DNA of 64,000 bases, taken from assembly GCA_030039165.1 (NCBI GenBank), contig JASHQM010000040.1, positions 24,522-88,521 of the forward strand, read 5' to 3'. Of the stretch, positions 7,729 through 34,839 are shown piece after piece. A program made the translations under genes and the position numbers. The notes under the pieces were generated by a model. It ran no database searches. It saw nothing but the letters and a program-made list of their open reading frames with translations, and was not told where the DNA came from. The stretch is from Candidatus Sulfotelmatobacter sp. (GTDB lineage Bacteria > Acidobacteriota > Terriglobia > Terriglobales > Acidobacteriaceae). Each line of letters opens with the position of its first letter. The first letter of the stretch is position 1.

Positions 7729-7851
7729 GAACATCTTCCCCAGGAATTGTGGCCTAGAACGGCGCATAGCGAGTTCCCCATCTGCCGGACCTCCGGCAGC
7801 TTTCTCAAATTTAAGTAATGATGTAATTTGGGGGATTTTTACTGCGCCGCT

Positions 7852-10109: not shown

Positions 10110-10175
10110 GAATTCGCACGGAATAATTCTTTCTCATCGATCCGTGTGAACCCGCGCAAAACGGTGGCAAAGACT

Positions 10176-17079: not shown

Positions 17080-17107
17080 TATGAGGGCAAACCTTTTATG
17101 TAATGTC

Positions 17108-20100: not shown

Positions 20101-22612
20101 GTCTTTCGAATGGCGCATCGTCATGCGAGAGCGCCTCCAAGGTCACTTCGCGCGTGTGAGCCAGAAACTCGCGAAAAGTCGGATCACCCGGGAAGTTCAA
20201 GCGCAACGCCAGCGGATTCTGAAAGCATCCCAGCAACTTCTCCAGTTCCGAGCGCTTGCGTCCGGAGGTAACCGTACCTACGATGAAATCCTGCTGCCCG
20301 CTGTAGCGGCGAAGCAGCGCCGCAAACCCCGCCAGGACAATCGTGAAGAAGCTGGTGTTTTCTTCCGACGCGAGCTCGTGCAGGCGTTCGGAAAGGCTAT
20401 GAGAAAACGCGAAGCGCTGCATGGCTCCGCGAAAGCTCTGCATGGCGGGCCGTGGACGGTCGGTGGGCAAGTCTAGAACCGGCAGCTCTCCATCCAGCTG
20501 TTGAGACCAGTAAGCCCGTGATGCATTTAACTGTTCGCTGGCCAGCGTCTCACGCCGCCAGCGTGCGAACTCGGGATATTGCAGCGGCAGTTCCGCAAGC
20601 GGCGATGTTTCACCGGCAAGGAATGCATTGTAAACAGTCACGAGTTCCGGCAGAAAGACGCGATAAATCGAGAACCCGTCGAAAATAATGTGATGGAGGA
20701 ACAGATAAAGCCGGTACTCTTCCTCATCCAGCCGCACCAGCATTGCGCGCAGCAGCGGGCCATTTTCCATGTCGAATGGCTCCCTGGCTTTTTCCTGAGC
20801 CATGCGAAGAGCCTCTGCTTCCCTCCGCTCGAGCGGCAACTGCCGCAGATCGGCCGCCGCAATGCCCATCTCGTACGGCTGCCGCACGATCTGCATAGGT
20901 TGCCCGTCGATCACGCAGAAAGTCGTGCGCCAGGCTTCGTGCCGGCGGATGATTTCGGCCAGGGCGCGCTCCAGCACGGCGAGGTCAAGTGGCCCGCGGC
21001 GATATACGGTTACCGACTCGTTATACAAATCCTTCGCGAACTGGCCGTGCAGCCAGATTTGTTGCTGCGCGAAGGATAGCGGTGCCGGTCCGCGATCGGT
21101 GTGCGTGGAGGGCGTAGTGGTTCTTTCCGCCGATCGCGCCTGAAGATATTTTCGAATCAACTCTTGTTTCGCATCGGTCCCCGCATCTGTCGCGGGTACG
21201 ACGTTTTCACTCTTTTCCTTTGCGCTGGAGTGAAGCGAGCCAAATGGACAGCCTCCCGGCGCAGCGGTTGCAGCTGCGGCATCCATCCGCTTCGCCGGTG
21301 CGCTGGACAATGCGACGGCGGATTTTCCGGCCAGCTTGACCTTCAGTGATTTCAGCCCGCGCAGCCCAAGGTTCGATCTCCACTCGATCGCCTGCGGCTC
21401 CAGCTTAATCTCGCGGAAACGCCGCAGCAAAGACTCGAAGACCACCTGCCCTTCCACGCGCGCCAGCGGAGCCCCAAAGCAGAAATGCGCCGCGTAGCCG
21501 AAAGCCATGTGGCGATTGTCTTTACGTGTAATGTCGAAGCGGTCGGGATCGGGAAAGCGCTCGGGATCGCGATTGGCGGCAGCCATCACGGCGATCACCG
21601 CCTGCCGCTTGTGAATCAGCTTTCCGCCCATTTCGCGCTCGGATGGGCAGATGCGCGCCGTGTGCTGGCTGGGGCTTTCGTAGCGCAGCATTTCCTCGAC
21701 GGCCGATGGAATCAGCGATAAATCAGCCCGCAGCTTTTCCATCTCCGCAGGATTGCGAAACAGAGTCAGTAGGCCGTTTCCAATCAGATTCGTGGTCGTC
21801 TCCTGCCCACCGACCATGGTGACAATGCAGTTGGCGATGACTTCTTCTTCCGTCAGCCGGTCGCCGTCAATTTCAGCGGTCATCAGCGAGTGGATCAACC
21901 CCGGCCGCGGATGCTCGCGCTCTGCGCGGATGGCATTCTGGAAATACTCCACCAGGTTCTCGACCGCTTTCAACACCCGAGGATAACGCTCGGGATTGTG
22001 CTGGAAGTTGCCCAGCATCTCGGCGAAATCCGCCGACCACGTTTTCAGTTTGAAATGATCTTCGGTTGGAACGCCGAGCATTTCTGCAGTAACGATTGCG
22101 GGCAGCGGCTCGGCTAAATCAGCGATGGCATCCATTTCGCCGCGCTTCTCAATGCCATCGAGCAAGTGGTTGACGATGTCCTGAATGTGATCGCGCAGTT
22201 CCTCAACCCGGGCCGGCGTGAAAGCCTTCGATGCTAACCCGCGCAGACGCGTGTGCGCAGGCGCATCCATGAATAACATCTGCTTCACCATCACTTGGGC
22301 AATCGGGCCCAGCGACGAGAGTCCCATCTCATCGAGTTGCGCAGGCGTGGGCGTGCGATCGGCGGAAAAGTTCAGCAGAACTTCCATCACATCGGAATAG
22401 CGTGTCACCACCCAGGCGTGCAGGAACGGATCCCAATGCACTGGATCTTCCGAGCGCAGGCGGTGAAACAACGGATAGGGATTGGCCAGCACCTCGGGGT
22501 CGAGGAGGTGATAGAGGCTCAGCGCCGCGTCCCGGTTTTCCAGACGTGGTGGAGTTTTTGTGCTATTGGACACTGCTGGCGTGGTCTCCAGAAAAGCGGG
22601 CTTGGGCGGCAA
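17108..22612 (-). CDS. non-ribosomal peptide synthetase, domain order cytochrome P450 - C - A - T - TE
   Basis: 1834 aa. P450 (aa 1-~430): I-helix MVGGQETTTN, ExxR EEMLRYESP, heme loop FGYAAHFCFGAPLA (Cys378 = nt 21479-21481). Then a ~80-aa Ala/Ser/Thr-rich linker. C domain HHIIFDGFS (nt 20678-20695). A domain LAYVIYTSGSTGKPRGV, YKTGDRARY, GRTDDQVKIRGYRVEL, PNGKVDRR. T domain FFDLGGHSLL (Ser1519 = nt 18056-18058). TE domain GYSFGG (Ser1649 = nt 17666-17668) and GDH. First in-frame start is TTG 22612; GTG 22576 is an alternative. Confidence 0.95.
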   Translation of the reverse strand: MPPKPAFLETTPAVSNSTKTPPRLENRDAALSLYHLLDPEVLANPYPLFHRLRSEDPVHWDPFLHAWVVTRYSDVMEVLLNFSADRTPTPAQLDEMGLSSLGPIAQVMVKQMLFMDAPAHTRLRGLASKAFTPARVEELRDHIQDIVNHLLDGIEKRGEMDAIADLAEPLPAIVTAEMLGVPTEDHFKLKTWSADFAEMLGNFQHNPERYPRVLKAVENLVEYFQNAIRAEREHPRPGLIHSLMTAEIDGDRLTEEEVIANCIVTMVGGQETTTNLIGNGLLTLFRNPAEMEKLRADLSLIPSAVEEMLRYESPSQHTARICPSEREMGGKLIHKRQAVIAVMAAANRDPERFPDPDRFDITRKDNRHMAFGYAAHFCFGAPLARVEGQVVFESLLRRFREIKLEPQAIEWRSNLGLRGLKSLKVKLAGKSAVALSSAPAKRMDAAAATAAPGGCPFGSLHSSAKEKSENVVPATDAGTDAKQELIRKYLQARSAERTTTPSTHTDRGPAPLSFAQQQIWLHGQFAKDLYNESVTVYRRGPLDLAVLERALAEIIRRHEAWRTTFCVIDGQPMQIVRQPYEMGIAAADLRQLPLERREAEALRMAQEKAREPFDMENGPLLRAMLVRLDEEEYRLYLFLHHIIFDGFSIYRVFLPELVTVYNAFLAGETSPLAELPLQYPEFARWRRETLASEQLNASRAYWSQQLDGELPVLDLPTDRPRPAMQSFRGAMQRFAFSHSLSERLHELASEENTSFFTIVLAGFAALLRRYSGQQDFIVGTVTSGRKRSELEKLLGCFQNPLALRLNFPGDPTFREFLAHTREVTLEALSHDDAPFERLVEELSVRRDTSRNPLFPVMFSLVPPTPKFEAGWDLNQLDLEIGTAKFDLDLELDDRPEGLLGRFVYSTDLFDAATMLRMAGHLEMMLEAIVADPDKKISRLPMLTAAEKQQVEQWNRTETEFPNQRCIHELVEAQVARTPGAIAVEHGDQRLTYRELDRRANQLAHFLRKRGVGPESKVGICLRRSLELPVTLLAVLKAGAACVPLDPAYPKARLAYMLEDSQTTVLLTQPGLLAEVTDFDAEVIALDATWKTFAGENPDAVTSGVTPENLAYVIYTSGSTGKPRGVLLNHLGLVNHSCAAVKLYGLTPADRMAQFASISFDIAIEEIFPTWISGGALVIREEDASLAISDFLRWVSERQVTVLDLPTAYWHELVGELSEAAASDPTRGLPESLRMVIVGGEKASLTVLAAWHTLAKSGVRWVNTYGPTETSVIVTAHEPKDWEEIPATLPIGRPIANTKIYILDEQLQQLPIGIAGDLYVSGPGLARGYHDRPEITAEKFIKDSFSPEPNARMYKTGDRARYLANGDIEFAGRTDDQVKIRGYRVELKEIESVLGSHSGTREVAVIAREEKGEKTLVAYVVPSRDQTPTGSELRTYLKQKLPHYMVPAAFVLLEAMPKTPNGKVDRRNMPAPRTGDFTEPNEYVAPKDELEAQLAKIWAMVLGKDRVGTRDNFFDLGGHSLLAARLMHRIEQTFGQRLPLAVLLQAPTIEQLATQLRQEGGSASWSSLVAIQSEGSRTPFFCVHGVGGNVVGFRDLARHTGEDQPFYALQPQGLDGKRPCLASIHEMAERYIQEIRRVQPQGPYRIGGYSFGGLVAYEMAQKLKAKDEEVSLLALFDTYPGKMESRVSALRNLRKLPFKEAATFLIKKGGFVLMTLGKRIELQMLPKPLRAVQRACAKAAAGYDVQPYDGVVTLFRVKEKSAGSLDDPYAIWWRMAAGGVDLREISGDHLSLLKEPQVRFLGEELARALDQSSVHRESSVTAPTLFSPIAVEMQQ

Positions 22613-24434
22613 CTTTGGCGAGGATGAGTTCCTCGATCTGCGAAGACATTTCAGCCACGGTAGGATGGTCGAACAGTTTAAGCAGAGTCAGCTCGACTCC
22701 GAAGGTTTCGCCGACGCGGGCGATCAACTGTGTCCCCAGCAGCGAATGGCCGCCGAGGAGGAAGAAGTTATCGTTAACTCCGACGCGCTCAAGTTTGAGC
22801 AAGGGAGCCAGAATCCTGACCAGTTGTTCTTCAACCGGCGTCCGGGCCTCGACGTAAGCCGCAGAGTTGCGCTTGCCATTCGGACTGGGCAGCGCCGCCC
22901 GATCGACCTTCCCATTGGCCGTCACGGGAATGCTGTCAATGGGAACAAACTGCGCCGGCACCATGTAATCGGGCAGGCTTTTGCGCACGTGATCGCGGAG
23001 TTCGTTCGCCTTTACCTTCGCGCCCGCAGCGGGTACCACGTAAGCGATCAATTCCTTTTCGCCAGGCGTATCTTCTTTGGCTATCACGATGCTGGCCCGC
23101 ACCGAAGCATGCTGATTCAAGACAACGGCGACCTCGCCCGGTTCGACGCGATAGCCGCGAATCTTGACTTGCTCATCGACACGGCCGAGAAATGCAATCT
23201 GGCCATCAGGCAGGCGCTTGCCCAGATCTCCGGTGCGATACATCCGCGCATTGGGTTCAGCGCTGAAGGGATTAGGACTAAATCTCTCCGAAGTTAAGTC
23301 GGGCCGATTGCGGTATCCGCGCGCCAGACCCGCGCCGCCGATATATATTTCACCGACTGTTCCTTCCCGGACGGGCCGTCGGTGATCGTCCAACAAGTAA
23401 ACTTGCACGTTGTCGATCTCCCGGCCGATCGAGGGTTGCTGCCCCGCCGAACTGTTTGGAGAAATCACTCCCGAGGTAGCAACTACCGTCGCTTCCGTTG
23501 GACCATAGTTATTGACCAACGCGAACGGCAGCCATGGCGAAGGATATGTTTTTAGCGTATCGGCGCCGGTGAGCAGGAATCGCAGAGATGTTTGCTTCGG
23601 CCATTCCATCTGCATGAGGCTTTCGGCGATGGGCGTGGCGGCAAAAGAAATAGTGATATGGTTCTCAATGATCCAATCTCGTAGCGTTTTTGTGTCATTG
23701 CGCACGGCATCGTCGGCGAGATGCACGCTCGCGCCACATGTCAGATATGGCCACAACTCCCAAACCGCGGCATCGAATCCCAGCGCCGCCGTGTGGCTGG
23801 CGCGGTCCGCCGAAGTGACTTGAAATGCGCGTTGGTGCCAATCGACGAGATTCACCAACCCAGCATGAGTAAGTTCTACACCCTTGGGCTGGCCGGTCGA
23901 GCCGGACGTATAAATAATGTAGGCAATGTCCCTCGGCATGGCGCCGTTTTCGGGCTGCGCATCGGGCTGGGCAGCGATTTTGGCCGCATCGGCGTCGACG
24001 GTCACAACCTGCCACGAAGCGGCGGCAAGCTTTTCAGTCAACTTCGTTGTGCTGACTACGACGCGGGCATCGGCATCGCGCAGCATAAAAGCAAGTCGCG
24101 TCACTGGCTGCGCGGGATCGAGCGGAATGTAGGCGCCGCCGGCTTTCAGAATCGCCAGAGCGGCAATTACCATGTCGGGAGTGCGTTCGAGATACAGGCC
24201 GACGGGCACATCTCGCGCAACGCCGAGCGTGCGCAGATAATTCGCCAGGCGATTGGCGCGGCGGTTCAATTCCTCATAAGAGATGATCTTCTCTCCCCGC
24301 GAAACAGCCGCAGCGGCTGGCTTAGCCTTTGCCTGGCGCGCCACGCGTTCGTGCACGCAGAGACACTCCTGGGCGGTCGCCGGATTCGACTCGTTCATCT
24401 CCATTCGAAGATCCAAGGCCTTGGAAGAGTGCAT
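22563..24434 (-). CDS. non-ribosomal peptide synthetase loading didomain (A - T)
   Basis: 623 aa. IAYIIYTSGSTGQPKGV, NNYGPTE, YRTGDLGKR, GRVDEQVKIRGYRVEPGEV, ANGKVDR. T domain FFLLGGHSLL (Ser564 = nt 22743-22745). No C, E or TE domain. Confidence 0.95.
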   Translation of the reverse strand: MHSSKALDLRMEMNESNPATAQECLCVHERVARQAKAKPAAAAVSRGEKIISYEELNRRANRLANYLRTLGVARDVPVGLYLERTPDMVIAALAILKAGGAYIPLDPAQPVTRLAFMLRDADARVVVSTTKLTEKLAAASWQVVTVDADAAKIAAQPDAQPENGAMPRDIAYIIYTSGSTGQPKGVELTHAGLVNLVDWHQRAFQVTSADRASHTAALGFDAAVWELWPYLTCGASVHLADDAVRNDTKTLRDWIIENHITISFAATPIAESLMQMEWPKQTSLRFLLTGADTLKTYPSPWLPFALVNNYGPTEATVVATSGVISPNSSAGQQPSIGREIDNVQVYLLDDHRRPVREGTVGEIYIGGAGLARGYRNRPDLTSERFSPNPFSAEPNARMYRTGDLGKRLPDGQIAFLGRVDEQVKIRGYRVEPGEVAVVLNQHASVRASIVIAKEDTPGEKELIAYVVPAAGAKVKANELRDHVRKSLPDYMVPAQFVPIDSIPVTANGKVDRAALPSPNGKRNSAAYVEARTPVEEQLVRILAPLLKLERVGVNDNFFLLGGHSLLGTQLIARVGETFGVELTLLKLFDHPTVAEMSSQIEELILAKVAAQARFSGDHASSVQ

Positions 24435-24450: not shown

Positions 24451-25902
24451 TTATGCCGCGCCCGAACCTTTCAAAACAGCGGGGACTGTTTTGGCGAGAA
24501 TTTCCAAATCAAGCCACAACGACCACGTCCGTATGTACTGCAAATCCAACTCCATCCATTTTTCGAAAGGAATCGAACTGCGTCCTTTGATTTGCCAGAG
24601 GCAGGTAATGCCCGGGCGCACGCTGAAGCGGCGGCGCTGCCAGTCCTTGCCGAAGGTATCGAACAACTCGTAATCGCGCACCTGAAGCGGACGTGGACCG
24701 ACCAGGCTCATGTCGCCTTTCAGCACGTTGAACAACTGCGGAAGCTCATCGATGCTGGTCTTGCGCAGCAAGCGGCCGACGGCCGTAATCCGCGGATCGT
24801 TCTTGATCTTGAATACCGGCCCGCTCACTTCATTCTGGTGCTCGATTTCCTTCAGCCGCTCTTCGGCATCGATGACCATGGTTCGGAACTTGTAGATGTC
24901 GAACATGCGCTTGTTGCGCCCCAGCCGTTTCTGCACAAAGAAAATCGGACCCAGGCTGCTGAGCTTGACCATGATGGCGGTCAATACCAGGACGGGCGAA
25001 AGCACCACAATCGCCATCGCGGAAACCACAATGTCGATCAGCCGCTTGATCGCCAGGCCCCAGGCGTCGACGATGGTGCTGTCGTGTCCAATTAGCAGCT
25101 CGTCCTCATGCCCGAAATCGTCGGCCCGGTGTTTAGCTTCTTTCAGGTCGAAGATGTTGGGCATGAATCGCACGATGATGCCTTGTTGTTCGCAAGCGGC
25201 TGCAATCCGCGAACCCAGCCCATGGAATGATCGGATAGGTAAAGCTATGACGATTTCATCCACAATGTTCTTGCGCAGGTATGCGGGCAGAGATTCCAGG
25301 TCGCTGACCAGCGAATAGCCCTCTGTCCTGAACCCGTCAAGCCCATTCCACTGTTCATCAGCAAACCCGAGAATCCTGTAACCGAGTTCGGGCCTAGCCT
25401 GAATGCGTTTCACCAGAGAGAGGGCCCTTGAGTTGGTGCCGATGATGAGAAGATTGCGCGCGTTGTGTCCACGCCGCCGGGCGTAAGCAAGAGTGGCGCG
25501 AATCAGCACGCGGCTCAGGATTACCGCTCCGGTGGTCAACAGCCAGAACAGAACCAGGAAGATGCGGTTTACCACCCAAATCTGGAACACCAAGGCCGTG
25601 AGCGCAATTACGAACGTTCCCAGGGTGGTCGCCGCTACGATATCGCGAAATTCATCCCGGCGCCGCGACAAGCGCTTCGACCCATAGAGGCCAAATACAT
25701 TAAAAAGGATGTGCCATACCAGCATGAAGCTGAGGAACAACAACAAATTGCTGAGCTTCACACGCATGGAGAAAAACTCGGTCAGCGTTAGCCTGTGTAC
25801 CCGATGGAACAGCGGCAGGGTCGATACCATGAATGCCGCCACCATCAGCAGCAAGTCGAAAACCTTCATCCCGGTTGAGAAAACCTTGCGGTCAATGCCC
25901 AT
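24451..25902 (-). CDS. polyprenyl-phosphate sugar-phosphate transferase (WbaP/EpsB-type priming glycosyltransferase)
   Basis: N-terminal TM helices, then KRLIDIVVSAMAIVVLSPVLVLTAIMVKLSSLGPIFFVQKRLGRNKRMFDIYKFRTM and DELPQLFNVLKGDMSLVGPRP (bacterial sugar transferase domain). Confidence 0.9.
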   Translation of the reverse strand: MGIDRKVFSTGMKVFDLLLMVAAFMVSTLPLFHRVHRLTLTEFFSMRVKLSNLLLFLSFMLVWHILFNVFGLYGSKRLSRRRDEFRDIVAATTLGTFVIALTALVFQIWVVNRIFLVLFWLLTTGAVILSRVLIRATLAYARRRGHNARNLLIIGTNSRALSLVKRIQARPELGYRILGFADEQWNGLDGFRTEGYSLVSDLESLPAYLRKNIVDEIVIALPIRSFHGLGSRIAAACEQQGIIVRFMPNIFDLKEAKHRADDFGHEDELLIGHDSTIVDAWGLAIKRLIDIVVSAMAIVVLSPVLVLTAIMVKLSSLGPIFFVQKRLGRNKRMFDIYKFRTMVIDAEERLKEIEHQNEVSGPVFKIKNDPRITAVGRLLRKTSIDELPQLFNVLKGDMSLVGPRPLQVRDYELFDTFGKDWQRRRFSVRPGITCLWQIKGRSSIPFEKWMELDLQYIRTWSLWLDLEILAKTVPAVLKGSGAA

Positions 25903-26015: not shown

Positions 26016-26276
26016 CTACTTCTTTGACTTCGCAATCACCAAGCGTTCAATGGCATCAACGCTTTCCAGGTTATCGTGAGTGATCTCTTCGTCGCCTACG
26101 CGAATCTTGAATGTGTCTTCCAGAAACGCCACCAGTCGGAAAATACCCATGGAATCCATAATGCCGTTCTTGGTCAGGATTTCCTGATCCGTAATCTGAT
26201 TGATGCCCTTGGTTTTGGCGAACTCGTCCAGCACGTACTGGCGAATCTGGTCTTTGGCTTCTGTGGTCTGAATCAT
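26016..26276 (-). CDS. acyl/peptidyl carrier protein
   Basis: 86 aa. Phosphopantetheine site GIMDSMGIFRLVAFLE (DSxG). Good RBS (GGGAG 5 nt upstream of the ATG). Confidence 0.85.
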   Translation of the reverse strand: MIQTTEAKDQIRQYVLDEFAKTKGINQITDQEILTKNGIMDSMGIFRLVAFLEDTFKIRVGDEEITHDNLESVDAIERLVIAKSKK

Positions 26277-26426
26277 GTTCTCCCTCTAAGAGTGTGGTGA
26301 TTGTATTTCGCGAGTGCAAAAAACTGTATGGCCTGTTCGTGTGGTAACTTTCGGTCATCTGAACCATTCGCCGGTCCACAACCGGTTCCAGATCCCATGA
26401 AAAGCCGCACGGAGCTGTGCGCCCGT

Positions 26427-28001
26427 CTACCGCACCGCCATGGTTTCTTCTTTCAATTTGACCCGATCGATTTTGCCGGTTGAGGTCTTGGGCAGCTCCC
26501 CATGAAAATCGATGAACTCCGGAATCATGTATTTCGGGACCTTGGTTGAGCAGTGCTGCTGCAGGTCCAGCGGTTTCAGTGAATCGGCGACATTCAGCGA
26601 TATAACAGCACGGATGCGGTTTCCCACGACCTCGTCAGGAATCGCCAGCACGGCCGCCTCTTTGACTCCCGGATGGCTCAACAACGCGCTTTCAATCTCA
26701 CCCAGCTCGATGCGGTAGCCGCGGCTTTTGATCATGCTGTCGCGGCGGCCCTGGAAATAAAAATTGCCGTCTTCGTTGACCGTAACCAGGTCGCCGGTAC
26801 GGTACATCTTTTCCTCGAAATTCTCCTGAAAGTGGTTTGGCACGACCATTTTTCGGGTCTTTTCGACGTCGGCCCAATATCCATAAGTGACGGCCGGGCC
26901 GCGAACGCAGAGTTCGCCGCTTTCACCCACGCGGGCGATGCGGCCATCATCAGTAACAGCGAATGCGTCGGTGTTGGCACAGGCAATGCCGATGGGCAGT
27001 TTGTCCATACTGGCGAGACGCTCGCGCTCGACTTTGTAATAGGTGCAGACGTTGGTTTCCGTCGGACCGTAAAGATTGTAGAGATCGGCTTGCGGCGCCA
27101 TTTCCGCCAGTTGGCGCAGATACTTCATGGGGAAGACTTCGCCGGCAAATAGGATCGTTCGCAGGCTCGCCAGCTTCTCCGGCGTCAGCCGTGCGTGCAG
27201 CAGCAGAAGCATCAGCGCAGAGGGCACCGAGTACCAGATCGTGATCTGTTTTTCCTGAATGAACGCGGCGAGGCTGGTAGGAAAGAGCGCCAGCTCCTCG
27301 GTGATCAGGTAAACTGTCGCACCCGCCTCCAGAGCGTTGTACACATCAAAAACTGAGAGATCGAAGTGCAACGGCGCGTGATTGGAAAGCTTGTCTCCGC
27401 TGCGCACCTGAAATTCCTCCGCGCACCATTCGACAAAGGTGAGCGCATTCTGGTGGCTCAGCATCACGCCCTTCGGGCGGCCGGTCGAACCCGAAGTATA
27501 AAGAATGTAAGCGATATCAGTTTCGATGGACGTTCCGTTCGGCGCCCGATCGGCAGGAAACTCCGCCAGATCAGACCACGGGATCATCCTGCCGCTATTG
27601 CCGTTCTCAGGCTGATCGGTCGAGATGCAGCAGTCGAGCAATTCGAGCGTTTCCGGCGAAAGCGCCTGCCGCTTTTCCTGGTTCGTAATCAACACGCGAA
27701 TACCGCAGTTGCCGATGATGTAGCACACGCGATCGGCCGGGGCCTGGGGATCGAGCGGAACGTACACTCCCCCGGCCTTTAATACGCCCAACATGCTGAC
27801 GATGGACTCGACGCACTTGGGGAAAAACAATCCCACGCGATCGCCTTTGCCGACCCCCTGTTCGCGCAACAGGTGAGCGAGTTGATTCGAGCGTTGCTCC
27901 AGCTCGCGATACGTAAGACTGCGGCCGCGCGCCCAGACGGCTTCCTTCCCCGGATATTTCTTTGCGCTCCTGCTCAGTAGTTGCTGTAAGACGTATGCCA
28001 T
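26427..28001 (-). CDS. stand-alone adenylation enzyme (DltA-like / amino-acid or acyl-AMP ligase)
   Basis: 524 aa. IAYILYTSGSTGRPKGV, NLYGPTE, YRTGDLV, GRRDSMIKSRGYRIELGEIE, STGKIDR. The FDLSV...W.S.PS...LF.GE architecture resembles DltA-type free-standing A domains. Confidence 0.9.
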   Translation of the reverse strand: MAYVLQQLLSRSAKKYPGKEAVWARGRSLTYRELEQRSNQLAHLLREQGVGKGDRVGLFFPKCVESIVSMLGVLKAGGVYVPLDPQAPADRVCYIIGNCGIRVLITNQEKRQALSPETLELLDCCISTDQPENGNSGRMIPWSDLAEFPADRAPNGTSIETDIAYILYTSGSTGRPKGVMLSHQNALTFVEWCAEEFQVRSGDKLSNHAPLHFDLSVFDVYNALEAGATVYLITEELALFPTSLAAFIQEKQITIWYSVPSALMLLLLHARLTPEKLASLRTILFAGEVFPMKYLRQLAEMAPQADLYNLYGPTETNVCTYYKVERERLASMDKLPIGIACANTDAFAVTDDGRIARVGESGELCVRGPAVTYGYWADVEKTRKMVVPNHFQENFEEKMYRTGDLVTVNEDGNFYFQGRRDSMIKSRGYRIELGEIESALLSHPGVKEAAVLAIPDEVVGNRIRAVISLNVADSLKPLDLQQHCSTKVPKYMIPEFIDFHGELPKTSTGKIDRVKLKEETMAVR

Positions 28002-28096
28002 GAATTACCGCGCCCTTTTTGATCTCAGTGGTTGCCGTTGTGAGTTGGGGGGAATAACAAAAATGCGGGATAGCCACCTGCAAAGATTACGCAGCC

Positions 28097-29239
28097 TTAC
28101 AGGCCTTGCATGTTGGCGATGATCACGCGATGAATCTCGGAGGTTCCCGAGTAGATTGTTCCCGCAATCGCGTCGCGCAGTTCACGCTCCAGTTCGTATT
28201 CGGTCGTGTATCCGTAGCCGCCGTGAATCTGAATAGCGTCGAGGCAGCTTTGCACGCAGGCCTCGCTCACGTAGACCTTGGCAATCGACGCTTCGCGCAG
28301 CGGATGCCGTCCCTGGCTCTTCATCCACGCCGCTTTGTAAAGGGCTAAGCGGCCAGTCTCCAGCCGGATATCCATCTCCGCGATCTTGTTGTTGATGGCG
28401 GGAAACTTCCCGATGGGTTCGCCAAACTGCTTGCGCTCCTTGGCGTACTTCGTGCAGGTTTCCATGATGCGCTGCATGGCGCCCAGATGGCTGGCCAGGA
28501 TGCAGATGCGCTCCCATTCCATCGACGAAGTAAAAACCGCCTGGCCGCCAAATTCTTTGCCCAGGAGATGCGACACCGGAATTTCGCAATCCTGCAGATA
28601 GATTTCCGCCATGGGCGAGGTGCGCAGCCCCATCTTGTGCAACTTCTTGCCAACCGTAAAACCCGGGGTGCCTTTATCGACGAGGAATGCTGTCACTCCG
28701 TTCGGCCCGCGCGAGGGATCCAGATTCGCGAAAACGATGGTTACATCCGCGTCAGGAGCATTGCTGCTGAATGTCTTCGAGCCATTGAGCACATAGCAGT
28801 CACCGTGGCGTTCGGCCCGGGTTTTCAGGCTGTAGGCGTCCGAACCGGAGCCCGGCTCGGTCATCGCATGCAAGCCGAGTCCCCCGCTGACCAGTCCCGG
28901 CAGATACTTGCGTTTCTGTTCTTCGGTTCCGAATTGCCAGATGGGAATCTCGGAACTCCACATGTGGGCGTTGATGGAAAAGATCAGGCCATTATCTTTG
29001 CAGCCATAACCCAGCATTTCGAGCGCGCCCACGGTGGTAAGCGTGTCAGCGCCGCCGCCGCCGTATTCCTGAGGAATGGGAAGTCCCTGAATACCGAACT
29101 TCGCGCATTTTACCCACAACTCGCGCGAGAATTCTTCGTTTTTGTCTCGCGTGATAATGTCATCATTCAGCTCTTCTTTGGCAAATCGCAAAACTTCTTT
29201 GCGAAATGCGGCCTGCTCATCATTCCATGCAAAGTCCAA
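28097..29239 (-). CDS. acyl-CoA dehydrogenase-family flavoprotein
   Basis: 380 aa, full ACAD layout. ...GLHAMTEPGSGSDA..., ...IHGGYGYTTEYELERELRDA..IYSGTSEI... (C-terminal catalytic Glu region). Confidence 0.9.
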   Translation of the reverse strand: MDFAWNDEQAAFRKEVLRFAKEELNDDIITRDKNEEFSRELWVKCAKFGIQGLPIPQEYGGGGADTLTTVGALEMLGYGCKDNGLIFSINAHMWSSEIPIWQFGTEEQKRKYLPGLVSGGLGLHAMTEPGSGSDAYSLKTRAERHGDCYVLNGSKTFSSNAPDADVTIVFANLDPSRGPNGVTAFLVDKGTPGFTVGKKLHKMGLRTSPMAEIYLQDCEIPVSHLLGKEFGGQAVFTSSMEWERICILASHLGAMQRIMETCTKYAKERKQFGEPIGKFPAINNKIAEMDIRLETGRLALYKAAWMKSQGRHPLREASIAKVYVSEACVQSCLDAIQIHGGYGYTTEYELERELRDAIAGTIYSGTSEIHRVIIANMQGL

Positions 29240-29305: not shown

Positions 29306-29971
29306 TTACGCCGATGCGGAGGTGGATGCCGCCGCATTCGCCGGAATCGCTGCCGGCGCCGCCTTCGCTTCAGCCCCTGGCAACTTCGCTTCAGCCGGGG
29401 CGTTTGCCACTTCCGGCTTCTTCACAAACCGCTGCGGACGCCCGCCCGGCAACTTGATTCGGGCCGGCACGCCCATGACCATCATGTTGTCGCGCACGTC
29501 GGTGAGCACCAGACTGTTGGCGGCGATCACCACGTTGCTGCCGATTTTGGCGTCACCAACGAGTTTCGCTCCCGGCCCGAAGTACACGTTGTCGCCAATG
29601 CCGCGGCAGGCGTGTGAAATCAGACATCCGGTCGCAATGGTGAAATTCTTCCCGATCTTCGTGGCGCCCAGGTTAATGGCGTACACGGAATGGATCACAA
29701 AGCCCGGGCCGATCTCGGCGCGAACGTCAATGTGCACGCTGGTGAAGACTTCCACAAACTTGCGCAAAAACAGCGCGGAAATTCTGAGCAACTGGCCAAC
29801 CAGCGGAATTTGCACGCCGCGCGCCCAACGGGAAAAGCGGTAGGCGACCACCGGCCAGGTCGCGTGCCGGATCATTCCTTCCAGCCGCTTACCCATGCTT
29901 GGTTGCCAGTTGGGATCGTTGCGGGTTTCGCGCAGCGCCCGGTCTATATCTTGACGAAGGTTCTCGAACAT
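29306..29971 (-). CDS. hexapeptide-repeat acyltransferase, serine O-acetyltransferase (CysE/EpsC)-like, with Ala/Pro-rich C-terminal tail
   Basis: IDVRAEIGPGFVIHSVYAINLGATKIGKNFTIATGCLI...GDNVYFGPGAKLVGDAKIGSNVVIAANSLVLTDV is a left-handed beta-helix. The last ~38 aa are low complexity (KKPEVANAPAEAKLPGAEAKAAPAAIPANAAASTSASA). Confidence 0.8.
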   Translation of the reverse strand: MFENLRQDIDRALRETRNDPNWQPSMGKRLEGMIRHATWPVVAYRFSRWARGVQIPLVGQLLRISALFLRKFVEVFTSVHIDVRAEIGPGFVIHSVYAINLGATKIGKNFTIATGCLISHACRGIGDNVYFGPGAKLVGDAKIGSNVVIAANSLVLTDVRDNMMVMGVPARIKLPGGRPQRFVKKPEVANAPAEAKLPGAEAKAAPAAIPANAAASTSASA

Positions 29972-29983
29972 TTCTATTTCCGC

Positions 29984-30775
29984 TTAGAGCTTCTTGTAAA
30001 TCTTTTCGGGCACGGGGAACGTCCGGTGATTGAGCACTGCGCCCAGCAGTCTGACGTTTGCTACGGCAAGATCGTGAACCGCCTGCTTGGCCGTTTCCCG
30101 GCGCGAAGAGTTCGCCCGCAGAACCAGTACGACGCCTTCGGCATAGCGGCTCAGGGCAATCGTATCGTCGCCCGGCCGCATGGGCGGGGCATCGACGAGA
30201 ACGTAGTCGAATTCGCGTTGCAGCTCTGGGAGGAGCGAACGCATGCGCTCGCTGCCCAGCAGGGCGTGCGATTTCTGTGTTTCCGAACCGCAGCTCATCA
30301 GCCAGAGATTCGAACGGGAAAGCTGGGTAACAAAGCCGCGCACTGGCTCATAGGTCTGCAAGCAATCGGAAAGACCATAGTGGTTGGGCACCTCGAACTG
30401 TGCGTGCAAACCCGGGGATCGCAAATTCGCGTCCACCAGGCAAACCGTGCCGGAGGTTTGCGAGGCCAGCACTTCACCCATGCGCGCGCAAATCCAACTG
30501 CCACCGTTGCCCGCTTCCGTCGCGGAAACTACCACCAGCCGCGATCCGTCATGGCCGGGGGCGAAGAATACACGCTGCACCAGTTTGAAGATTTCATCGC
30601 GCTGCCCGTCTTCCATCTTCAAGGCCAGTGGCTTGAGGTCGACCGGCGGCTTAGGCTCGGCCATGCTCGCAGTCACTGCGGCGGGCGCAGCTGCCACGGA
30701 CAGAGACTCGATAGAGGTCTGGAACATGTCGCGTTCCTTACCCAGATTCTGCATCAGTTCGAAATTCTTGCTCAT
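29984..30775 (-). CDS. BY-kinase-like (CpsD/CapB/EpsG-type) P-loop protein with degenerate Walker A
   Basis: Walker A' CLVDANLRSP and Walker B DYVLVDAPP are present. The Walker A position reads SATEAGNGGSW (no Lys, nt ~30497-30511). No C-terminal Tyr cluster (tail ...FPVPEKIYKKL). Confidence 0.75.
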   Translation of the reverse strand: MSKNFELMQNLGKERDMFQTSIESLSVAAAPAAVTASMAEPKPPVDLKPLALKMEDGQRDEIFKLVQRVFFAPGHDGSRLVVVSATEAGNGGSWICARMGEVLASQTSGTVCLVDANLRSPGLHAQFEVPNHYGLSDCLQTYEPVRGFVTQLSRSNLWLMSCGSETQKSHALLGSERMRSLLPELQREFDYVLVDAPPMRPGDDTIALSRYAEGVVLVLRANSSRRETAKQAVHDLAVANVRLLGAVLNHRTFPVPEKIYKKL

Positions 30776-30827: not shown

Positions 30828-31898
30828 TTAGCTTACGGGAGTGTCGGAACGCGTTCCGCTACGCCAGTTGTTCAACAGCCGGGCGACATCGCGCATATGC
30901 TGCATCGCTTCCGCCGGGGTCAACGAGTCCTTCTTCTTTTGCGAAACTTCGGAGTGACTGTTGCCATTGGCCCCACTGCCGTTGTCCCCGTCCCTGCGCG
31001 ACTCATAGGGCTCGGGCATGGGATCGCTGCTCAAAACCCCGGTAGACATCATTCTCGACATGGTCAAGGGCACTTCGACTTCCGACATGAAGCGGTGTAT
31101 ATCCAGATCGTTGGCCACCTCACGCACGATTTGGAGATCCACGACCTTTTTTCGCTCGGCACAAGCCAGCGAAAGGGAATGGAAGCAATAGTTGTTGATT
31201 TGCCGGGGGATACCTTCGCTCGCGTCGGCGAGCAGTGCCAGCGCCTCGGGCGTAAATAAGCTGCGTCCATTGTGTCCGGCGACCTTCAAACGATGATCGA
31301 TGAAGCGCTGAGTTTCAAGCGGCGAAAGCGGAGTCAACCCGCTCAGGGAGGTGATTCTCTGCCGCAACTGCGTCAGGGCCGAACTGGCCAGTTTATCCGC
31401 CAGTGATGGCTGGCCGACCAGAATGATCTGCAGCAGCTTGGCCTGCGGCGTTTCGAAGTCGGAGAGCAGGCGCACGGTTTCGAGAACCGAGGCATCCAGG
31501 TTCTGTGCCTCGTCGATAACTACGATGAAGCGCCGGCCGGCGCGCGCTTCCTGCACCAGACAGCGGTTGAACTGCTCGTGCATGCGCACGAAATCGTTGC
31601 TTTCGTTTTCGATTCCGATTTCCGCCAGCAGAAAGCGCATGAACTCGCGCGAGTTGCACTGCGTCTGAAAAATAAACGCGGTGCGCGCCGTGTGCGAAAA
31701 CTTGGCCAGTAGATGAAACAGCAAAGTGGTTTTTCCCATGCCCGGGCGTGCCACCAGGGACAGGAATCCGCGATCTGCCTCGATGCCGTAATAGAGCGAC
31801 GCCAGCGCTTCCCGGTGCGCCGGGCCGAGATACAGATACCGTGGGTCCGGCGATACGCCGAAAGGTTGCTCTCGCAATCCAAAGAATTCAAGAAACAT
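30828..31898 (-). CDS. ExeA/GspA-like AAA ATPase of the PEP-CTERM-locus type
   Basis: N-terminal FFGLREQPFGVSPDPRYLYLGPAHREAL, P-loop ARPGMGKTTLL, and DEAQ box VVIDEAQNL. These are the features recalled for TIGR03015. Confidence 0.85.
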   Translation of the reverse strand: MFLEFFGLREQPFGVSPDPRYLYLGPAHREALASLYYGIEADRGFLSLVARPGMGKTTLLFHLLAKFSHTARTAFIFQTQCNSREFMRFLLAEIGIENESNDFVRMHEQFNRCLVQEARAGRRFIVVIDEAQNLDASVLETVRLLSDFETPQAKLLQIILVGQPSLADKLASSALTQLRQRITSLSGLTPLSPLETQRFIDHRLKVAGHNGRSLFTPEALALLADASEGIPRQINNYCFHSLSLACAERKKVVDLQIVREVANDLDIHRFMSEVEVPLTMSRMMSTGVLSSDPMPEPYESRRDGDNGSGANGNSHSEVSQKKKDSLTPAEAMQHMRDVARLLNNWRSGTRSDTPVS

Positions 31899-31926: not shown

Positions 31927-33561
31927 TTAGTTGTCCATATTGCCGCTTACTTCGTGAGTGCTCTCACTGCCATTTCCGTGCACCGTTTCACTGCTGTTGC
32001 CATTGCCGTGGCCGTTTCCGCTCTTGTTAAGCGCACTGCCTTTGCTTTGCTGCGTAGGAACTGCAGCCAGCACCGGAATTCTCAACTCCGCCATGACCTC
32101 CGATGGAGTGCGGAACGACTGGTCGGCGTAATCGAGGGCGAAAACCACTCCCAGGCTGACAGCTGATGCCAACAAGCAAGCCACCAGACCGAAAATCCAG
32201 GGCGAGCGCGTCGGCAAGCTGGGAAGGGACGGGTTTTGCGCGATCGAGACGTTAAGGATGCGCGTCTTATCCATGGCGTCGGAAATCCTCGCCTCCTCGC
32301 GCTTCTTCGTGTAAAGCAGGTAATTGCCTTCGGCTGCAGTCTTGGCGCGTATCAGGTCGCCTTGCCGGATTGATTGCTCATCCAGGTTCTTGGCCTTTTC
32401 CCTGTACCAATTCACGGTGGCCTCAAGGCTTCTCTCCCTGGCCTGGTATCCGCTCAAATCAGCCTTCGCCTTGGCCAACTCGGAAGCGACCCACACGTAA
32501 GTCGAGTTCTGATCTGTAGTTTCCTCAGTGACCGGGGCAGCTTCTTCCTGCGCCAGGGCAGCTTTGGTATCGGCGATCTCTTTATCGACCTCTACCACCA
32601 GTGGATAAGTCGGCTGATACTTCGTGAGCAGTTCGGTGCGCTTGTTTTCGAGCGTGACCAAAGTCGACTTCAGAGTTTCCAGAACCTGTGCATTCTGTCC
32701 TTTTTTCACCTGTGTTGTCAGGCGGGTCGGCGTGGAGTGCGACTGGGCTTCGAGGTCGGCGATCCGCCTTTCACTTTCAGCGATGGAAGCCCTGGTTGTA
32801 TCGAGCGTGCTGCTGAAATCGGCCAGCTTTTGGAGAATCATGTCCCGCTGGGTGGTGGGCGCCACACCATTCTGCTCATCCGAAAATCTTGCCAGCTCGC
32901 CCTCGACTGTCATCATCTCTTTTTTGTACTTGTCCGCTTCCCGCTCGAAAAATTCGGCCTGCCCCGAAGGATGATGCACTTCCAGGTGTTTGTCCAGGTA
33001 TGCTTTATCGAGCGTGGCCAGTACCCGTTGCGCCAACTCGGGCTTATGCGATTCGTAGGCGATACTGATGACGTTGGTCTTCTTGATCACTTCCAGCTGC
33101 AGATCAGAGCGCAGACGAACCACCGCACGGTCAGTGCGATTCTGCAGCGTCTCGCCGGGGTGGAAGACGCTGCCCAGGAAGGTTTTCTGGTCGAGGCCGC
33201 AAGTGGTAACAACTTTTTGGAGCACATCCTGGCTCTGAATCAACTCCACTTCGGAGTTGATCTCTTCTTCGCTCACCGTGTCGTGGAACATCAAGGGAGC
33301 ATTTTGCTCAGGGCTGACGACAGGATCGACTCTTTCGCGGTTCACCAGCAGCTTGGTTTCGGCCCGGTACTTCGCCGGCAAAGCCAGAGCTGAGAGCATC
33401 ACGCCCAGGGCAACACCAACAAAACAGAGCGCCATCACTCGCTGATGGCGGAATCCAATGGCCACCACGTCTCTCGCCGTGAAACTGTAGGGTCTGTGTC
33501 CGGTTTTGAAAATTGAATCGTTCATTGGTTGCAGTCTCCGTACCGCCTTCGCTTCCATCAC
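31927..33561 (-). CDS. polysaccharide chain-length determinant / co-polymerase (Wzz/GumC family)
   Basis: TM helix - long coiled-coil periplasmic region - C-terminal TM helix (WIFGLVACLLASAVSLGVVFAL). Wzz-like N-terminal motif. His/Gly/Asn-rich tail. Confidence 0.85.
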   Translation of the reverse strand: MMEAKAVRRLQPMNDSIFKTGHRPYSFTARDVVAIGFRHQRVMALCFVGVALGVMLSALALPAKYRAETKLLVNRERVDPVVSPEQNAPLMFHDTVSEEEINSEVELIQSQDVLQKVVTTCGLDQKTFLGSVFHPGETLQNRTDRAVVRLRSDLQLEVIKKTNVISIAYESHKPELAQRVLATLDKAYLDKHLEVHHPSGQAEFFEREADKYKKEMMTVEGELARFSDEQNGVAPTTQRDMILQKLADFSSTLDTTRASIAESERRIADLEAQSHSTPTRLTTQVKKGQNAQVLETLKSTLVTLENKRTELLTKYQPTYPLVVEVDKEIADTKAALAQEEAAPVTEETTDQNSTYVWVASELAKAKADLSGYQARERSLEATVNWYREKAKNLDEQSIRQGDLIRAKTAAEGNYLLYTKKREEARISDAMDKTRILNVSIAQNPSLPSLPTRSPWIFGLVACLLASAVSLGVVFALDYADQSFRTPSEVMAELRIPVLAAVPTQQSKGSALNKSGNGHGNGNSSETVHGNGSESTHEVSGNMDN

Positions 33562-33594: not shown

Positions 33595-34356
33595 TCAGGG
33601 AATCTGCAACGGCAGGTACGTTCCCGCGCTCAGATTGGGCACCACTCGGTCAATTTTGGACAAGGTATTCTTCGGGACGAATAACATGTCGCCCGAGTGC
33701 AGGAATGGGTCTTCGCGCAGGTCGCGGTTCTTTTCCATTTTCTTGACATCGATCAGTTTGGCTTCAGTCCACTGGTCGTCGATGCGGCGGAACAGCACCA
33801 CCTGGGAATGCTTCGCGCTCGATTGAAAGCCTCCCGCAATGGCAATGGCCTGGGTTACGGTTATATTTCCGTGCATGTCATATTTGCCGGGCTTTGCCAC
33901 CTGGCCGTCGGCGACGAAATAAGGCTTCTCGAAATCTTTCAGCACAACCGAGATGGGCGGGTTATTCAGAAACTTTCCATAAGCCGATTTCAGCGTTGCC
34001 GTCAGCTCTGGAACGGTCATTCCGGCGACCTTCAGTTCTGCGATCCCGCGTAGAGTAACGAAACCATCGGGTTGTACCGCGACGGCCGTTTGATTGAACT
34101 CGGGGCTGAGATCGAAGGTGAGATCGAAGGTGTCGCCCGCCTCGATGTGGTAGCGCGGAGTACGCGAGTTGAATTGCGGACCGTTTGCCGCGGGCTTGGA
34201 CGCGTCGCTCTTGCTCGCGTCCGGCGCCCCGCTGGTCGCAGCGGAAGTTGTACTTGAAGCCGTGGTCGTCTGCGCCGAGCAAATCATCGCGCTCAGCAGG
34301 CATGCCGCCAATGCGGTCAGCAACGGCTGCTTAATTGAGTTCGTAATCATTGTCAA
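33595..34356 (-). CDS. polysaccharide export protein (Wza/EpsE-like, Poly_export + SLBB)
   Basis: Signal peptide. YHIEAGDTFDLTF...VQPDGFVTLRGIAELKVAGMTVPEL (Poly_export), followed by YFVADGQVAKPGKYDMHGNITVTQAIAIAGG (SLBB). Confidence 0.85.
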   Translation of the reverse strand: MTMITNSIKQPLLTALAACLLSAMICSAQTTTASSTTSAATSGAPDASKSDASKPAANGPQFNSRTPRYHIEAGDTFDLTFDLSPEFNQTAVAVQPDGFVTLRGIAELKVAGMTVPELTATLKSAYGKFLNNPPISVVLKDFEKPYFVADGQVAKPGKYDMHGNITVTQAIAIAGGFQSSAKHSQVVLFRRIDDQWTEAKLIDVKKMEKNRDLREDPFLHSGDMLFVPKNTLSKIDRVVPNLSAGTYLPLQIP

Positions 34357-34470: not shown

Positions 34471-34776
34471 TTATTCCGCCTTCGCCGACTCAGCGACCAG
34501 AGGCTGAACCTGTCGTACGGTGTTCGGGCTCAGATTGTGCTGACGAATCTTGTACAAGATTCCGCGATAACTGATGGACAGCAACTGAGCCGCCCGGCGT
34601 CGATTCCAGCCAGTGTATTCCAGAGTGCGGGTGATGGCGTAAATTTCCGCTTCGGCGCGCAGACTGCGCAGCGAAAAGTGCGGATCGCTCAGCGGCTGCT
34701 CGGGATTCTCGCCGGATTCGGCTTTGGGCACGGGATTGCCAGTTTTATTGGCTTTCACCTTGTTTTCTAATTCCAT
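34471..34776 (-). CDS. stand-alone Fis-type (HTH_8) DNA-binding protein
   Basis: C-terminal AEAEIYAITRTLEYTGWNRRRAAQLLSISYRGILYKIRQHNL. No receiver or AAA+ domain. ATG 34776 preferred; the ORF extends to 34818. Confidence 0.65.
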   Translation of the reverse strand: MELENKVKANKTGNPVPKAESGENPEQPLSDPHFSLRSLRAEAEIYAITRTLEYTGWNRRRAAQLLSISYRGILYKIRQHNLSPNTVRQVQPLVAESAKAE

Positions 34777-34839
34777 ATGACTAGCCTCGCAACAGAAGTG
34801 AACGTGACTTATTTTCAAACCGGGGGAAAGGAGGGAACT

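Follow-up and report, generated by a model that had tools for sequence, protein, structure and literature searches.

A predicted proline-loading and proline-oxidising cassette within an exopolysaccharide operon of Acidobacteriaceae

Results

A three-gene cassette and its neighbour

We analysed a 64 kb stretch of DNA from Candidatus Sulfotelmatobacter sp. (contig JASHQM010000040.1, positions 24,522 to 88,521), which we call the window. A preliminary description made from the sequence alone had singled out three consecutive genes within an exopolysaccharide (EPS) operon. We recovered the same three open reading frames (ORFs), which encode a 380-amino-acid flavoprotein of the acyl-CoA dehydrogenase (ACAD) family, a 524-amino-acid adenylation (A) enzyme and an 86-amino-acid carrier protein with an MDSMG site. 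As described, they lie between an acyltransferase gene (29306-29971) and the gene for a priming sugar-phosphotransferase (24451-25902), and all genes of the finding are on the minus strand. By specificity and family assignment the trio is predicted to be a thiotemplated cassette that loads and oxidises proline. The trio had been presented as standing alone. The three genes are indeed there, but the unit conserved across related loci has four genes, including the acyltransferase, and nonribosomal peptide synthetase (NRPS) genes follow it.

29306-29971, minus strand: hexapeptide-repeat (left-handed beta-helix) acyltransferase, CysE/WcaB type, Pfam Hexapep
28097-29239, minus strand: ACAD-fold flavoprotein, 380 amino acids, predicted prolyl-carrier-protein dehydrogenase/oxidase using FAD, TTG start
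26427-28001, minus strand: stand-alone A enzyme, 524 amino acids, predicted L-proline--[carrier protein] ligase
26016-26276, minus strand: free-standing carrier protein, 86 amino acids, phosphopantetheine Ser in MDSMG

The A enzyme carries a proline-type pocket

The A enzyme matched AMP-binding (E 6e-94) and AMP-binding_C, and its core motifs YTSGSTGRPKG, NLYGPTE, YRTGD and GKIDR are intact. It passed the amino-acid adenylation model TIGR01733 with 408 bits (cutoff 317), so it is not a fatty-acyl-AMP ligase, the outcome that would have spoken against the preliminary description. Alignment to positions 235-517 of GrsA-PheA gave the pocket code DLFYLALVCK, the same ten residues that had earlier been extracted by hand. 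We consider the mapping of pocket positions valid because GrsA itself, read in the same way, gave the code published for it, DAWTIAAICK.

We found that the code is identical to that of PltF (DLLYLALVCK) at 9 of 10 positions and to that of PigI (DLFYIAWVCK) at 8 of 10 in PDB alignments, which bears out the resemblance to pyrrole-pathway proline activators that had been suspected. In contrast, the DltA codes of B. cereus and B. subtilis (DLMTLCTVAK or DLMTMCTVAK) were identical to it at only 4-5 of 10 positions. The preliminary count of five differences from DltA holds for the B. cereus enzyme (5 of 10); for the B. subtilis enzyme our own reading of the alignment gave 6 of 10. Position 301 is Ala in the window's A enzyme and Cys in DltA, and the contrast between LFCGE in DltA and LFAGE here is visible in the alignment, as had been noted. 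With the pocket segment alone as a PDB query, PltF and PigI were the top two matches; the full A enzyme scored 369 bits against PltF (6O6E) and about 258 bits against DltA. The code DLFYLALVCK is invariant across nine acidobacterial loci, and either it or the exact PltF code occurs in six other phyla. On these signatures the A enzyme is predicted to be L-proline-specific. A literature search for the proline code (DLFYLALVCK/DLLYLALVCK) and for the basic-residue code described below (DIEDIGTV-) returned nothing; only the Leu code could be sourced.

The carrier protein

The carrier-protein start is preceded by a good ribosome-binding site (GAGGGAGAAC-ATG). The protein fell below the Pfam PP-binding threshold (17 bits against 20.8). 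Its best PDB matches were 2MY5, a type II peptidyl carrier protein (E 2e-8), and then PltL (E 4e-6), DltC and PigG. The top NCBIfam model was ACP_for_OlsHI, which comes from a planctomycete ornithine-lipid pathway; at 54 bits against a cutoff of 130 we judged this lead to be weak generic similarity. The spacer between the A-enzyme and carrier-protein genes (26277-26426) is unusually long at 150 nt. Within it, a weak 5-bp hairpin with a T-rich tail after it (26421-26406) was indistinguishable from chance in our scan.

The flavoprotein belongs with prolyl-carrier-protein oxidases

All three Acyl-CoA_dh Pfam domains were matched by the flavoprotein (E 5e-46 to 1e-27). The closest PDB structure was AnaB (4IRN), with 468 bits and 55% identity end to end; Bmp3 (6CXT, 315 bits) and PigA (5ZW0, 303 bits) were 41-42% identical. 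Among NCBIfam models PigA (418.6 bits) and RedW (412.9 bits) came first and the next family scored 336. The catalytic glutamate is kept in PDB alignments as E243 within SMEWER, in a column where the structure of mutated PigA, 6AF6, has Ala. The role of the catalytic Glu in an ACAD-type enzyme is stated in PMC10849742.

A neighbour-joining tree was built from 37 proteins, comprising AnaB, PigA, Bmp3, ACADs from loci with a neighbouring proline-type A enzyme, and ordinary ACADs, with support given as split-based counts over 200 resamplings. The prolyl-type enzymes, including the window ACAD, AnaB, PigA and Bmp3, separated from ordinary ACADs with 100% split support. The window enzyme is thus not placed with housekeeping acyl-CoA dehydrogenases, a placement that the preliminary description had named as one that would count against its reading. 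The EPS-linked ACADs of acidobacteria formed a clade with 99% support. Grouping of the window ACAD with AnaB received 14% support and a position as sister to all other prolyl-type enzymes 72%. We had considered the phylogeny as an arbiter between two- and four-electron chemistry; it was uninformative there, the acidobacterial clade being sister to the rest of the family. By sequence, the window's ACAD is assigned to a new, well-separated clade of a known kind of cassette. The earlier proline-cassette interpretation thus gains from all three proteins: the ACAD falls in the prolyl clade, the A code is PltF-like and the carrier protein matches PltL and PigG.

A further ACAD, 62% identical, lies at 883-2031 of a short Terriglobia contig (L011). 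Its KQFG.PIGKF motif region is scrambled and it has no A-enzyme or carrier-protein neighbours; it is probably a decaying copy.

The surrounding operon

The minus strand from about 35400 to 4465 is a single long, tightly packed gene array, and a terminator scan found no convincing internal terminator across it. The trio sits mid-operon, with Wzc-like genes upstream, the priming transferase next, and Wzx, Wzy-like, glycosyltransferase family 4 (GT4) and sulfotransferase genes further downstream. In addition to the four genes given above, the array contains the following.

34840-35400, minus strand: UpxY-family NusG-like antiterminator, operon head
34471-34818, minus strand: small Fis-type HTH_8 protein, operon head
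33595-34356, minus strand: Wza-like exporter, Poly_export/SLBB
31927-33561, minus strand: chain-length determinant, Wzz
30828-31898, minus strand: AAA ATPase
29984-30775, minus strand: tyrosine-autokinase-like ATPase
24451-25902, minus strand: priming polyprenyl-phosphate hexose-1-phosphate transferase, Bac_transf; TIGR03025 at 422 bits, above cutoff
22563-24434, minus strand: didomain gene of an A domain and a peptidyl carrier protein (A-PCP), Leu pocket code
17108-22612, minus strand: fusion of cytochrome P450, condensation (C), A, PCP and thioesterase (TE) domains (P450-C-A-PCP-TE), 1834 amino acids, basic-residue pocket code
15694-17079, minus strand: Wzx-type flippase, 461 amino acids, from homologue names; some homologues PF13440
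14790-15704, minus strand: sulfotransferase
13665-14753, minus strand: GH10 glycoside hydrolase
12106-13767, minus strand: Wzy_C-type polymerase/ligase-like protein
10975-11982, minus strand: NAD-dependent epimerase/dehydratase
10099-10719, minus strand: protein without an assigned family
8916-10109, minus strand: GT4 glycosyltransferase
7852-8919, minus strand: second sulfotransferase
4465-7767, minus strand: Ig/ASH-repeat protein, 1100 amino acids, operon tail

A priming transferase and Wzx, Wzy-type, Wza and Wzc-like proteins are thus encoded in one operon, as expected for a Wzx/Wzy-dependent EPS locus. From its gene content we assign the operon as a Wzx/Wzy-type, UpxY-controlled, sulfotransferase-bearing EPS locus of Acidobacteriaceae. 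The flippase start was set at ATG 17079, the shorter form backed by homologues (the listed ORF extends to 17178); JGI names these homologues 'O-antigen/teichoic acid export membrane protein'. The two sulfotransferases and the GH10 enzyme suggest that the polysaccharide is sulfated and that an enzyme for trimming or processing it is encoded with it. No polyketide synthase (PKS) or ketosynthase, halogenase, pyridoxal phosphate (PLP)-dependent decarboxylase, exosortase or membrane-bound O-acyltransferase (MBOAT) was found among the annotated ORFs of the window. Rfam, tRNA and promoter/terminator scans returned nothing bearing on the cassette.

The pair of UpxY antiterminator and HTH_8 genes recurs at the head of related acidobacterial loci. 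Very large Ig-like repeat proteins (ASH/Cep192/HYDIN-type, He_PIG) are encoded at the distal end of the operon (4465-7767) and just beyond it (154-2601), and may belong to the cell surface or the matrix, in association with the polymer. Close homologues (87-92% identity) come from soil and peat metagenomes and carry the names Candidatus Sulfotelmatobacter or Terriglobales. Cluster look-ups for a cultured carrier of the cassette gave metagenome-assembled genome (MAG) and metagenome sources only.

A four-gene module with a hexapeptide acyltransferase

The protein encoded next to the trio scored below cutoff against the NCBIfam models for EpsC, CysE, NeuD and WcaB, and its top PDB match was a serine acetyltransferase at 37 bits. 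An attempt to read its acyl donor from the sequence was abandoned, as it gave remote matches at the CysE/WcaB/LpxD level only. We collected at least 10 related loci through the ACAD and at least 80 through the hexapeptide protein, and mapped the window's proteins onto them by tblastn. Among the matches listed, 60 hexapeptide-gene loci had enough flanking sequence to be counted. The hexapeptide gene adjoins the trio in 54 of these, in two gene orders: the ACAD gene is immediately 3' of it in 50, followed by the A-enzyme and carrier-protein genes where the contig is long enough, and four (L124, L130, L140 and L145) have the permuted order A enzyme, carrier protein, hexapeptide protein. The remaining 6 of the 60 lack the trio.

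The same embedding in an EPS operon was seen in at least 10 loci fetched with the ACAD and in dozens of metagenomic loci, and within the Acidobacteriaceae it holds throughout. In several loci the four genes occur alone, with no NRPS gene; one example is L121, where they are bounded by convergent housekeeping genes. On this synteny we take the conserved unit to be a four-gene module of hexapeptide acyltransferase, ACAD, A enzyme and carrier protein, and the hexapeptide protein is a candidate transferase for the proline-derived acyl group.

One locus from a MAG labelled Verrucomicrobiia (L010) carries a full acidobacterial-type operon head and the four-gene module at 70-74% identity, which points either to an error in binning the contig or to an EPS locus that was transferred horizontally as a whole.

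The NRPS genes downstream are an accessory branch

Besides the A enzyme the window holds further parts of NRPS type: the A-PCP and P450-C-A-PCP-TE genes downstream had gone unmentioned in the preliminary description. The A-PCP gene has the code DAWFLGNVVK, the commonest Leu code, and its PCP serine lies in GGHS; DAWFLGNVVK is given as a Leu code in PMC12283262. The A domain of the fusion protein has the code DIEDIGTVIK, whose pocket is acidic. This code shows the Glu239/Asp278 pattern reported in the same paper (PMC12283262) for domains that activate Arg, Lys or Orn, and a basic amino acid is predicted here from the acidic pocket. Further motifs of the fusion are HHIIFDG in the C domain, GGHS in the PCP, GYSFG in the TE and FGYAAHFCFG in the P450. 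The C domain resembles elongation-type domains (Txo2, Txo1, TycC6) and not the CDA starter C domain, so its donor is more probably Leu-S-PCP than a pyrrolyl-S-carrier protein. The closest solved relative of the P450 is BioI, which acts on acyl-ACP; hydroxylation of a tethered residue would fit with this. Related loci encode the P450 in a gene of its own.

Across related loci the NRPS parts are present or absent independently of the four-gene module. The commonest element is the gene joining the basic-residue A domain to a PCP and TE. The occurrence of the A-PCP gene for Leu and of the P450 varies independently. A full-length C domain is confined to the sublineage of the window; L103 and L107 have a truncated one and most other loci have none, so the A-PCP-TE protein of those relatives must work without a condensation domain. 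Where the domains occur their codes are kept, as DAWFLGNVVK-like and DIEDIGTVIK. From this distribution the NRPS branch is judged to be accessory and lineage-variable.

Sister lineages pair the trio with halogenases and with a DltB-like membrane protein

Outside the Acidobacteriaceae, ACADs 49-59% identical to that of the window are again flanked by an A enzyme with a proline code and a small carrier protein. The taxa include Anaerolineae, Myxococcota, Gemmatimonadota, Planctomycetota, Vicinamibacteria, Cytophagales and Burkholderiales. In some of these loci, and in one linked to the hexapeptide transferase, halogenase genes accompany the trio.

L012, 12845-14107: PltA-type FADH2-dependent halogenase beside the trio, 409 bits to PltA and 394 to Mpy16
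L014, about 12754-14040: PltA/Mpy16-type halogenase beside the trio
L015, about 16281-17444: PltA/Mpy16-type halogenase beside the trio
L016, about 1379-3984: PltA/Mpy16-type halogenase, two copies, beside the trio
L146, 11802-13151: PltA-like halogenase between two ACAD copies, in a hexapeptide-transferase-linked locus

Characterised enzymes of the PltA type halogenate pyrrolyl-S-carrier proteins. The PltA case is cited in PMC10849742. The presence of such halogenases beside the nearest relatives of the ACAD favours four-electron pyrrole formation near the window's enzyme, and implies halopyrrolyl-S-carrier proteins in glycan-type contexts. Locus L146 also encodes a carbamoyltransferase and an SGNH protein.

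A polytopic membrane protein of about 850 amino acids with a C-terminal SGNH domain is encoded in L013, L014, L016, L018 and L041. In L017 and L021 it is divided between two genes, and in the Anaerolineae loci AT3 acyltransferases replace it. JGI names its homologues DltB or AlgI. In an AlphaFold model (mean predicted local distance difference test score 83) the best PDB folds were DltB (8JEM, 6BUG) and then PORCN and HHAT, and the C-terminal domain matched SGNH esterases. We found this MBOAT-SGNH fusion operonic with the trio in Burkholderiales, Myxococcota, Gemmatimonadota, Planctomycetota and Vicinamibacteria. Two loci, whose ACADs are 52-54% identical to that of the window, have gap-free runs.

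L167, 6001-11543: MBOAT-SGNH protein, carrier protein (83 amino acids), A enzyme (code DLLYLALVCK) and ACAD in a gap-free four-gene run, Burkholderiales MAG
L168, 6001-11555: MBOAT-SGNH protein, carrier protein, A enzyme and ACAD in a gap-free four-gene run

Judged by the predicted fold of its membrane protein, this operon looks like a Dlt-type system that has a pocket for proline and has an oxidase added to it, and it implies an extracytoplasmic polymer as acceptor. The window gave no match in a tblastn search with the MBOAT-SGNH proteins of the related loci. A literature search of limited reach found no description of systems combining MBOAT, SGNH, carrier protein and ACAD, and operons of this kind appear to be undescribed.

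Discussion

Proposed pathway and its precedents

Our data suggest the following pathway. The A enzyme would adenylate L-proline and load it as a thioester on the phosphopantetheine arm of the carrier protein. The ACAD would use Glu243 to oxidise the tethered pyrrolidine ring, and by analogy with characterised homologues the product is probably pyrrolyl-2-carboxyl-S-carrier protein, formed by removal of four electrons. The hexapeptide acyltransferase could then take the acyl group off the carrier protein, as LpxA and LpxD do from ACP; these two enzymes show that the hexapeptide fold is able to use acyl-carrier proteins. The acyl group would esterify a sugar hydroxyl of the lipid-linked repeat unit at the cytoplasmic face before Wzx flipping, and the outcome would be an EPS with pyrrole-2-carboxyl (or dehydroprolyl) substituents. 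The NRPS branch would probably add a unit of (hydroxy)Leu and a basic residue in the window and single aminoacyl groups in loci that lack the C domain, with the TE acting either as a hydrolase that releases this unit or as a transferase that passes it to the same polymer. To the whole of this explanation, namely proline oxidation cassette, hexapeptide transfer to the EPS repeat unit and accessory NRPS, we give a rough probability of 0.55.

The same three stand-alone protein types are found in PltF/PltL/PltE, PigI/PigG/PigA, RedM/RedO/RedW and Bmp4/Bmp1/Bmp3, which serve pyoluteorin (Plt), prodiginines (Pig and Red) and bromopyrroles (Bmp). The window shares with these pyrrole cassettes a code 9/10 identical to that of PltF, an ACAD in the same clade with its catalytic Glu, and a carrier protein that matches PltL and PigG. 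Unlike them it has no ketosynthase, halogenase or pyrrole-condensing enzyme; its cassette lies inside a Wzx/Wzy EPS operon coupled to a hexapeptide acyltransferase, and its ACAD stays below the PigA and RedW equivalog cutoffs in a 99%-supported clade of its own. AnaC/AnaD/AnaB of anatoxin-a biosynthesis likewise load proline on a stand-alone carrier and then oxidise it, with AnaB 55% identical to the window's ACAD; however, the AnaB product primes a PKS (AnaE-G), and none of the window ORFs examined showed a ketosynthase or other PKS domain.

For the proposed fate of the acyl group the nearest precedent is the transfer of pyrrolyl to noviose, and for the logic of the system it is Dlt. In clorobiocin and coumermycin biosynthesis CloN4/CloN5/CloN3 and CloN2/CloN1/CloN7 move pyrrolyl-2-carboxyl onto the noviose 3-OH, a pyrrolyl ester on a sugar as proposed for the window. 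To our knowledge this is the only established case of the product of such a cassette ending as a sugar ester. The Clo transfer has an aminocoumarin glycoside as acceptor and uses an acyltransferase of the alpha/beta-hydrolase type and a second carrier protein, with no polysaccharide machinery, whereas the candidate transferase of the window is a hexapeptide-repeat protein within a polysaccharide operon. DltABCD, like the window, uses a stand-alone A enzyme (about 258 bits to that of the window) and a small carrier to decorate a surface glycopolymer. Unlike for Dlt, no MBOAT, SGNH or DltD protein was found in the window, which has a proline-type code and an added oxidising flavoenzyme, and its transfer is proposed to be cytoplasmic, before Wzx flipping; in other phyla the proline-type trio shares its operon with an SGNH-fused MBOAT of the DltB fold.

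Alternatives

Several observations weigh against the proposed pathway. The ACAD lies under the equivalog cutoffs of PigA (418.6 against 500) and RedW (412.9 against 650) and is therefore a family member but an orthologue of neither; it is as near to AnaB, a two-electron enzyme, as to its halogenase-associated relatives, and the tree puts it inside neither functional group. The hexapeptide protein is only remotely like any characterised enzyme, and its closest families, CysE, WcaB and NeuD, use acetyl-CoA and not acyl-carrier proteins. Homologues about 70% identical to it in L108-L111, which are probably the same population, have no trio nearby; in L108 (6888-9522) the gene follows a polysaccharide deacetylase and a GT4 gene, so that either the proline cassette has been lost there or the hexapeptide family is not strictly dependent on it. 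The protein could be an ordinary O-acetyltransferase held nearby by lineage synteny, and since a single bacterial family supplies every hexapeptide-linked locus, the synteny does not amount to many independent observations. We found no gene for forming an aminosugar in the window, which leaves as acceptor either hydroxyl groups or something whose genes lie elsewhere. Finally, we know of no pyrrole-acylated polysaccharide.

The alternatives differ in how much of the pathway they change. The smallest change keeps the cassette and its target and replaces the oxidation with AnaB-type chemistry, in which a two-electron oxidation and isomerisation would give 1-pyrroline-5-carboxyl-S-carrier protein, a cyclic imine, for transfer. 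No solved structure matches the ACAD better than AnaB (468 bits against 315 for Bmp3 and 303 for PigA), and no halogenase or other pyrrole-tailoring enzyme was found among the window ORFs. The tree gave no specific grouping with AnaB at 14% support, however, and its higher score is due to PigA and Bmp3 being on long branches. PltA-type halogenases of pyrrolyl-S-carrier proteins stand beside relatives of similar distance (54-64% identity), and the anatoxin imine thioester is a PKS starter where the window has no PKS. We regard the pyrroline product as possible and clearly the less probable of the two. A second change concerns delivery: the hexapeptide protein may be an acetyl-CoA-dependent O-acetyltransferase of the EPS, as its closest families and the trio-less homologues at 70% identity would allow, with the proline-derived group passed on by the TE, the C domain or an enzyme encoded elsewhere. 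This we find doubtful, given that the minimal loci L121, L117 and L126 offer no other transferase candidate in the module and that adjacency to the trio survives the permuted gene order of L124, L130, L140 and L145.

The polysaccharide itself would drop out if the joint product of trio and NRPS were a small peptide able to diffuse, such as pyrrolyl-(hydroxy)Leu-Lys, set free hydrolytically by the TE and unattached to the polymer, with its genes co-transcribed with those for EPS. The window does hold a complete minimal line for this, with A-PCP, P450, an intact C domain (HHIIFDG) and A-PCP-TE with its serine in GYSFG, and pyrrolyl-S-carrier proteins are known starters of NRPS and PKS assembly. 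Yet many related trio loci lack the C domain, the A-PCP and P450, or any NRPS gene; the C domain is of the elongation and not the starter type; the NRPS genes are interleaved with those for the priming transferase and Wzx, inside an EPS operon in every locus; and across phyla the trio is partnered by a transmembrane acyltransferase resembling DltB and not by an assembly line. These findings make the peptide unlikely. Least probable by a wide measure is a cassette that is not proline-specific at all, whether a fatty-acyl-AMP ligase with ACP and acyl-ACP dehydrogenase, a Dlt-type D-Ala system, or a variant of the TIGR03098/ACP/TIGR03099 set of exosortase-A (XrtA/PEP-CTERM) loci, the last of which the preliminary description had raised as a possible relative. 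The XrtA set does pair an AMP-forming ligase with a carrier in an EPS locus, the EPS and export genes of the window weakly match XrtA/PEP-CTERM-associated models below threshold, and the A enzyme has sizeable scores against TIGR03098 (366 bits) and the DltA models (325-336 bits). All of these are under the cutoffs (592 for TIGR03098, 476 and 560 for DltA). Furthermore, Asp235 and Lys517 mark an activator of alpha-amino acids, the code differs from that of DltA at 5-6 of 10 positions including the Cys-to-Ala change, an ACAD is present that stands apart from ordinary ACADs with 100% support, and no MBOAT, DltD, PLP decarboxylase or exosortase is among the annotated window ORFs. The exosortase-A variant was accordingly dropped.

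Context and significance

A literature search of limited reach found no description of an NRPS or of a proline cassette within polysaccharide loci of acidobacteria or of the Wzx type, and we know of no report of a proline-oxidation cassette serving a polysaccharide pathway. The polysaccharide context of the cassette thus appears to be new, and its predicted coupling to a sugar-type acyltransferase points to an undescribed proline-derived EPS decoration. A wider reading is that surface-glycan modification of this kind crosses phyla: carrier-bound proline would be converted to a pyrrolyl or pyrrolinyl thioester and placed onto envelope polymers by two modes of delivery, the hexapeptide acyltransferase in Wzx/Wzy loci of Acidobacteriaceae and MBOAT-SGNH proteins in other taxa, sometimes after halogenation. 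We offer this tentatively, as an idea whose odds fall clearly short of even.

Acidobacteriaceae are among the most abundant bacteria of soil and peat, and their EPS shapes soil aggregation and carbon retention; the chemistry of these polymers is barely known. If the proposed pathway is true, it would add a new class of polysaccharide substituent, a proline-derived heteroaromatic group accompanied by NRPS-derived aminoacyl groups, and would mean that the thiotemplate logic of secondary metabolism has been recruited into primary envelope glycobiology. Acidobacterial 'NRPS clusters' reported by genome mining may then be capsule-decoration genes and not antibiotic genes, and the MBOAT-SGNH version would extend the Dlt paradigm past D-alanine and past Gram-positive bacteria. 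At very long odds, AnaB-type chemistry together with a lysine-loading A domain would yield a pyrroline-carboxy-lysine substituent resembling desmethyl-pyrrolysine.

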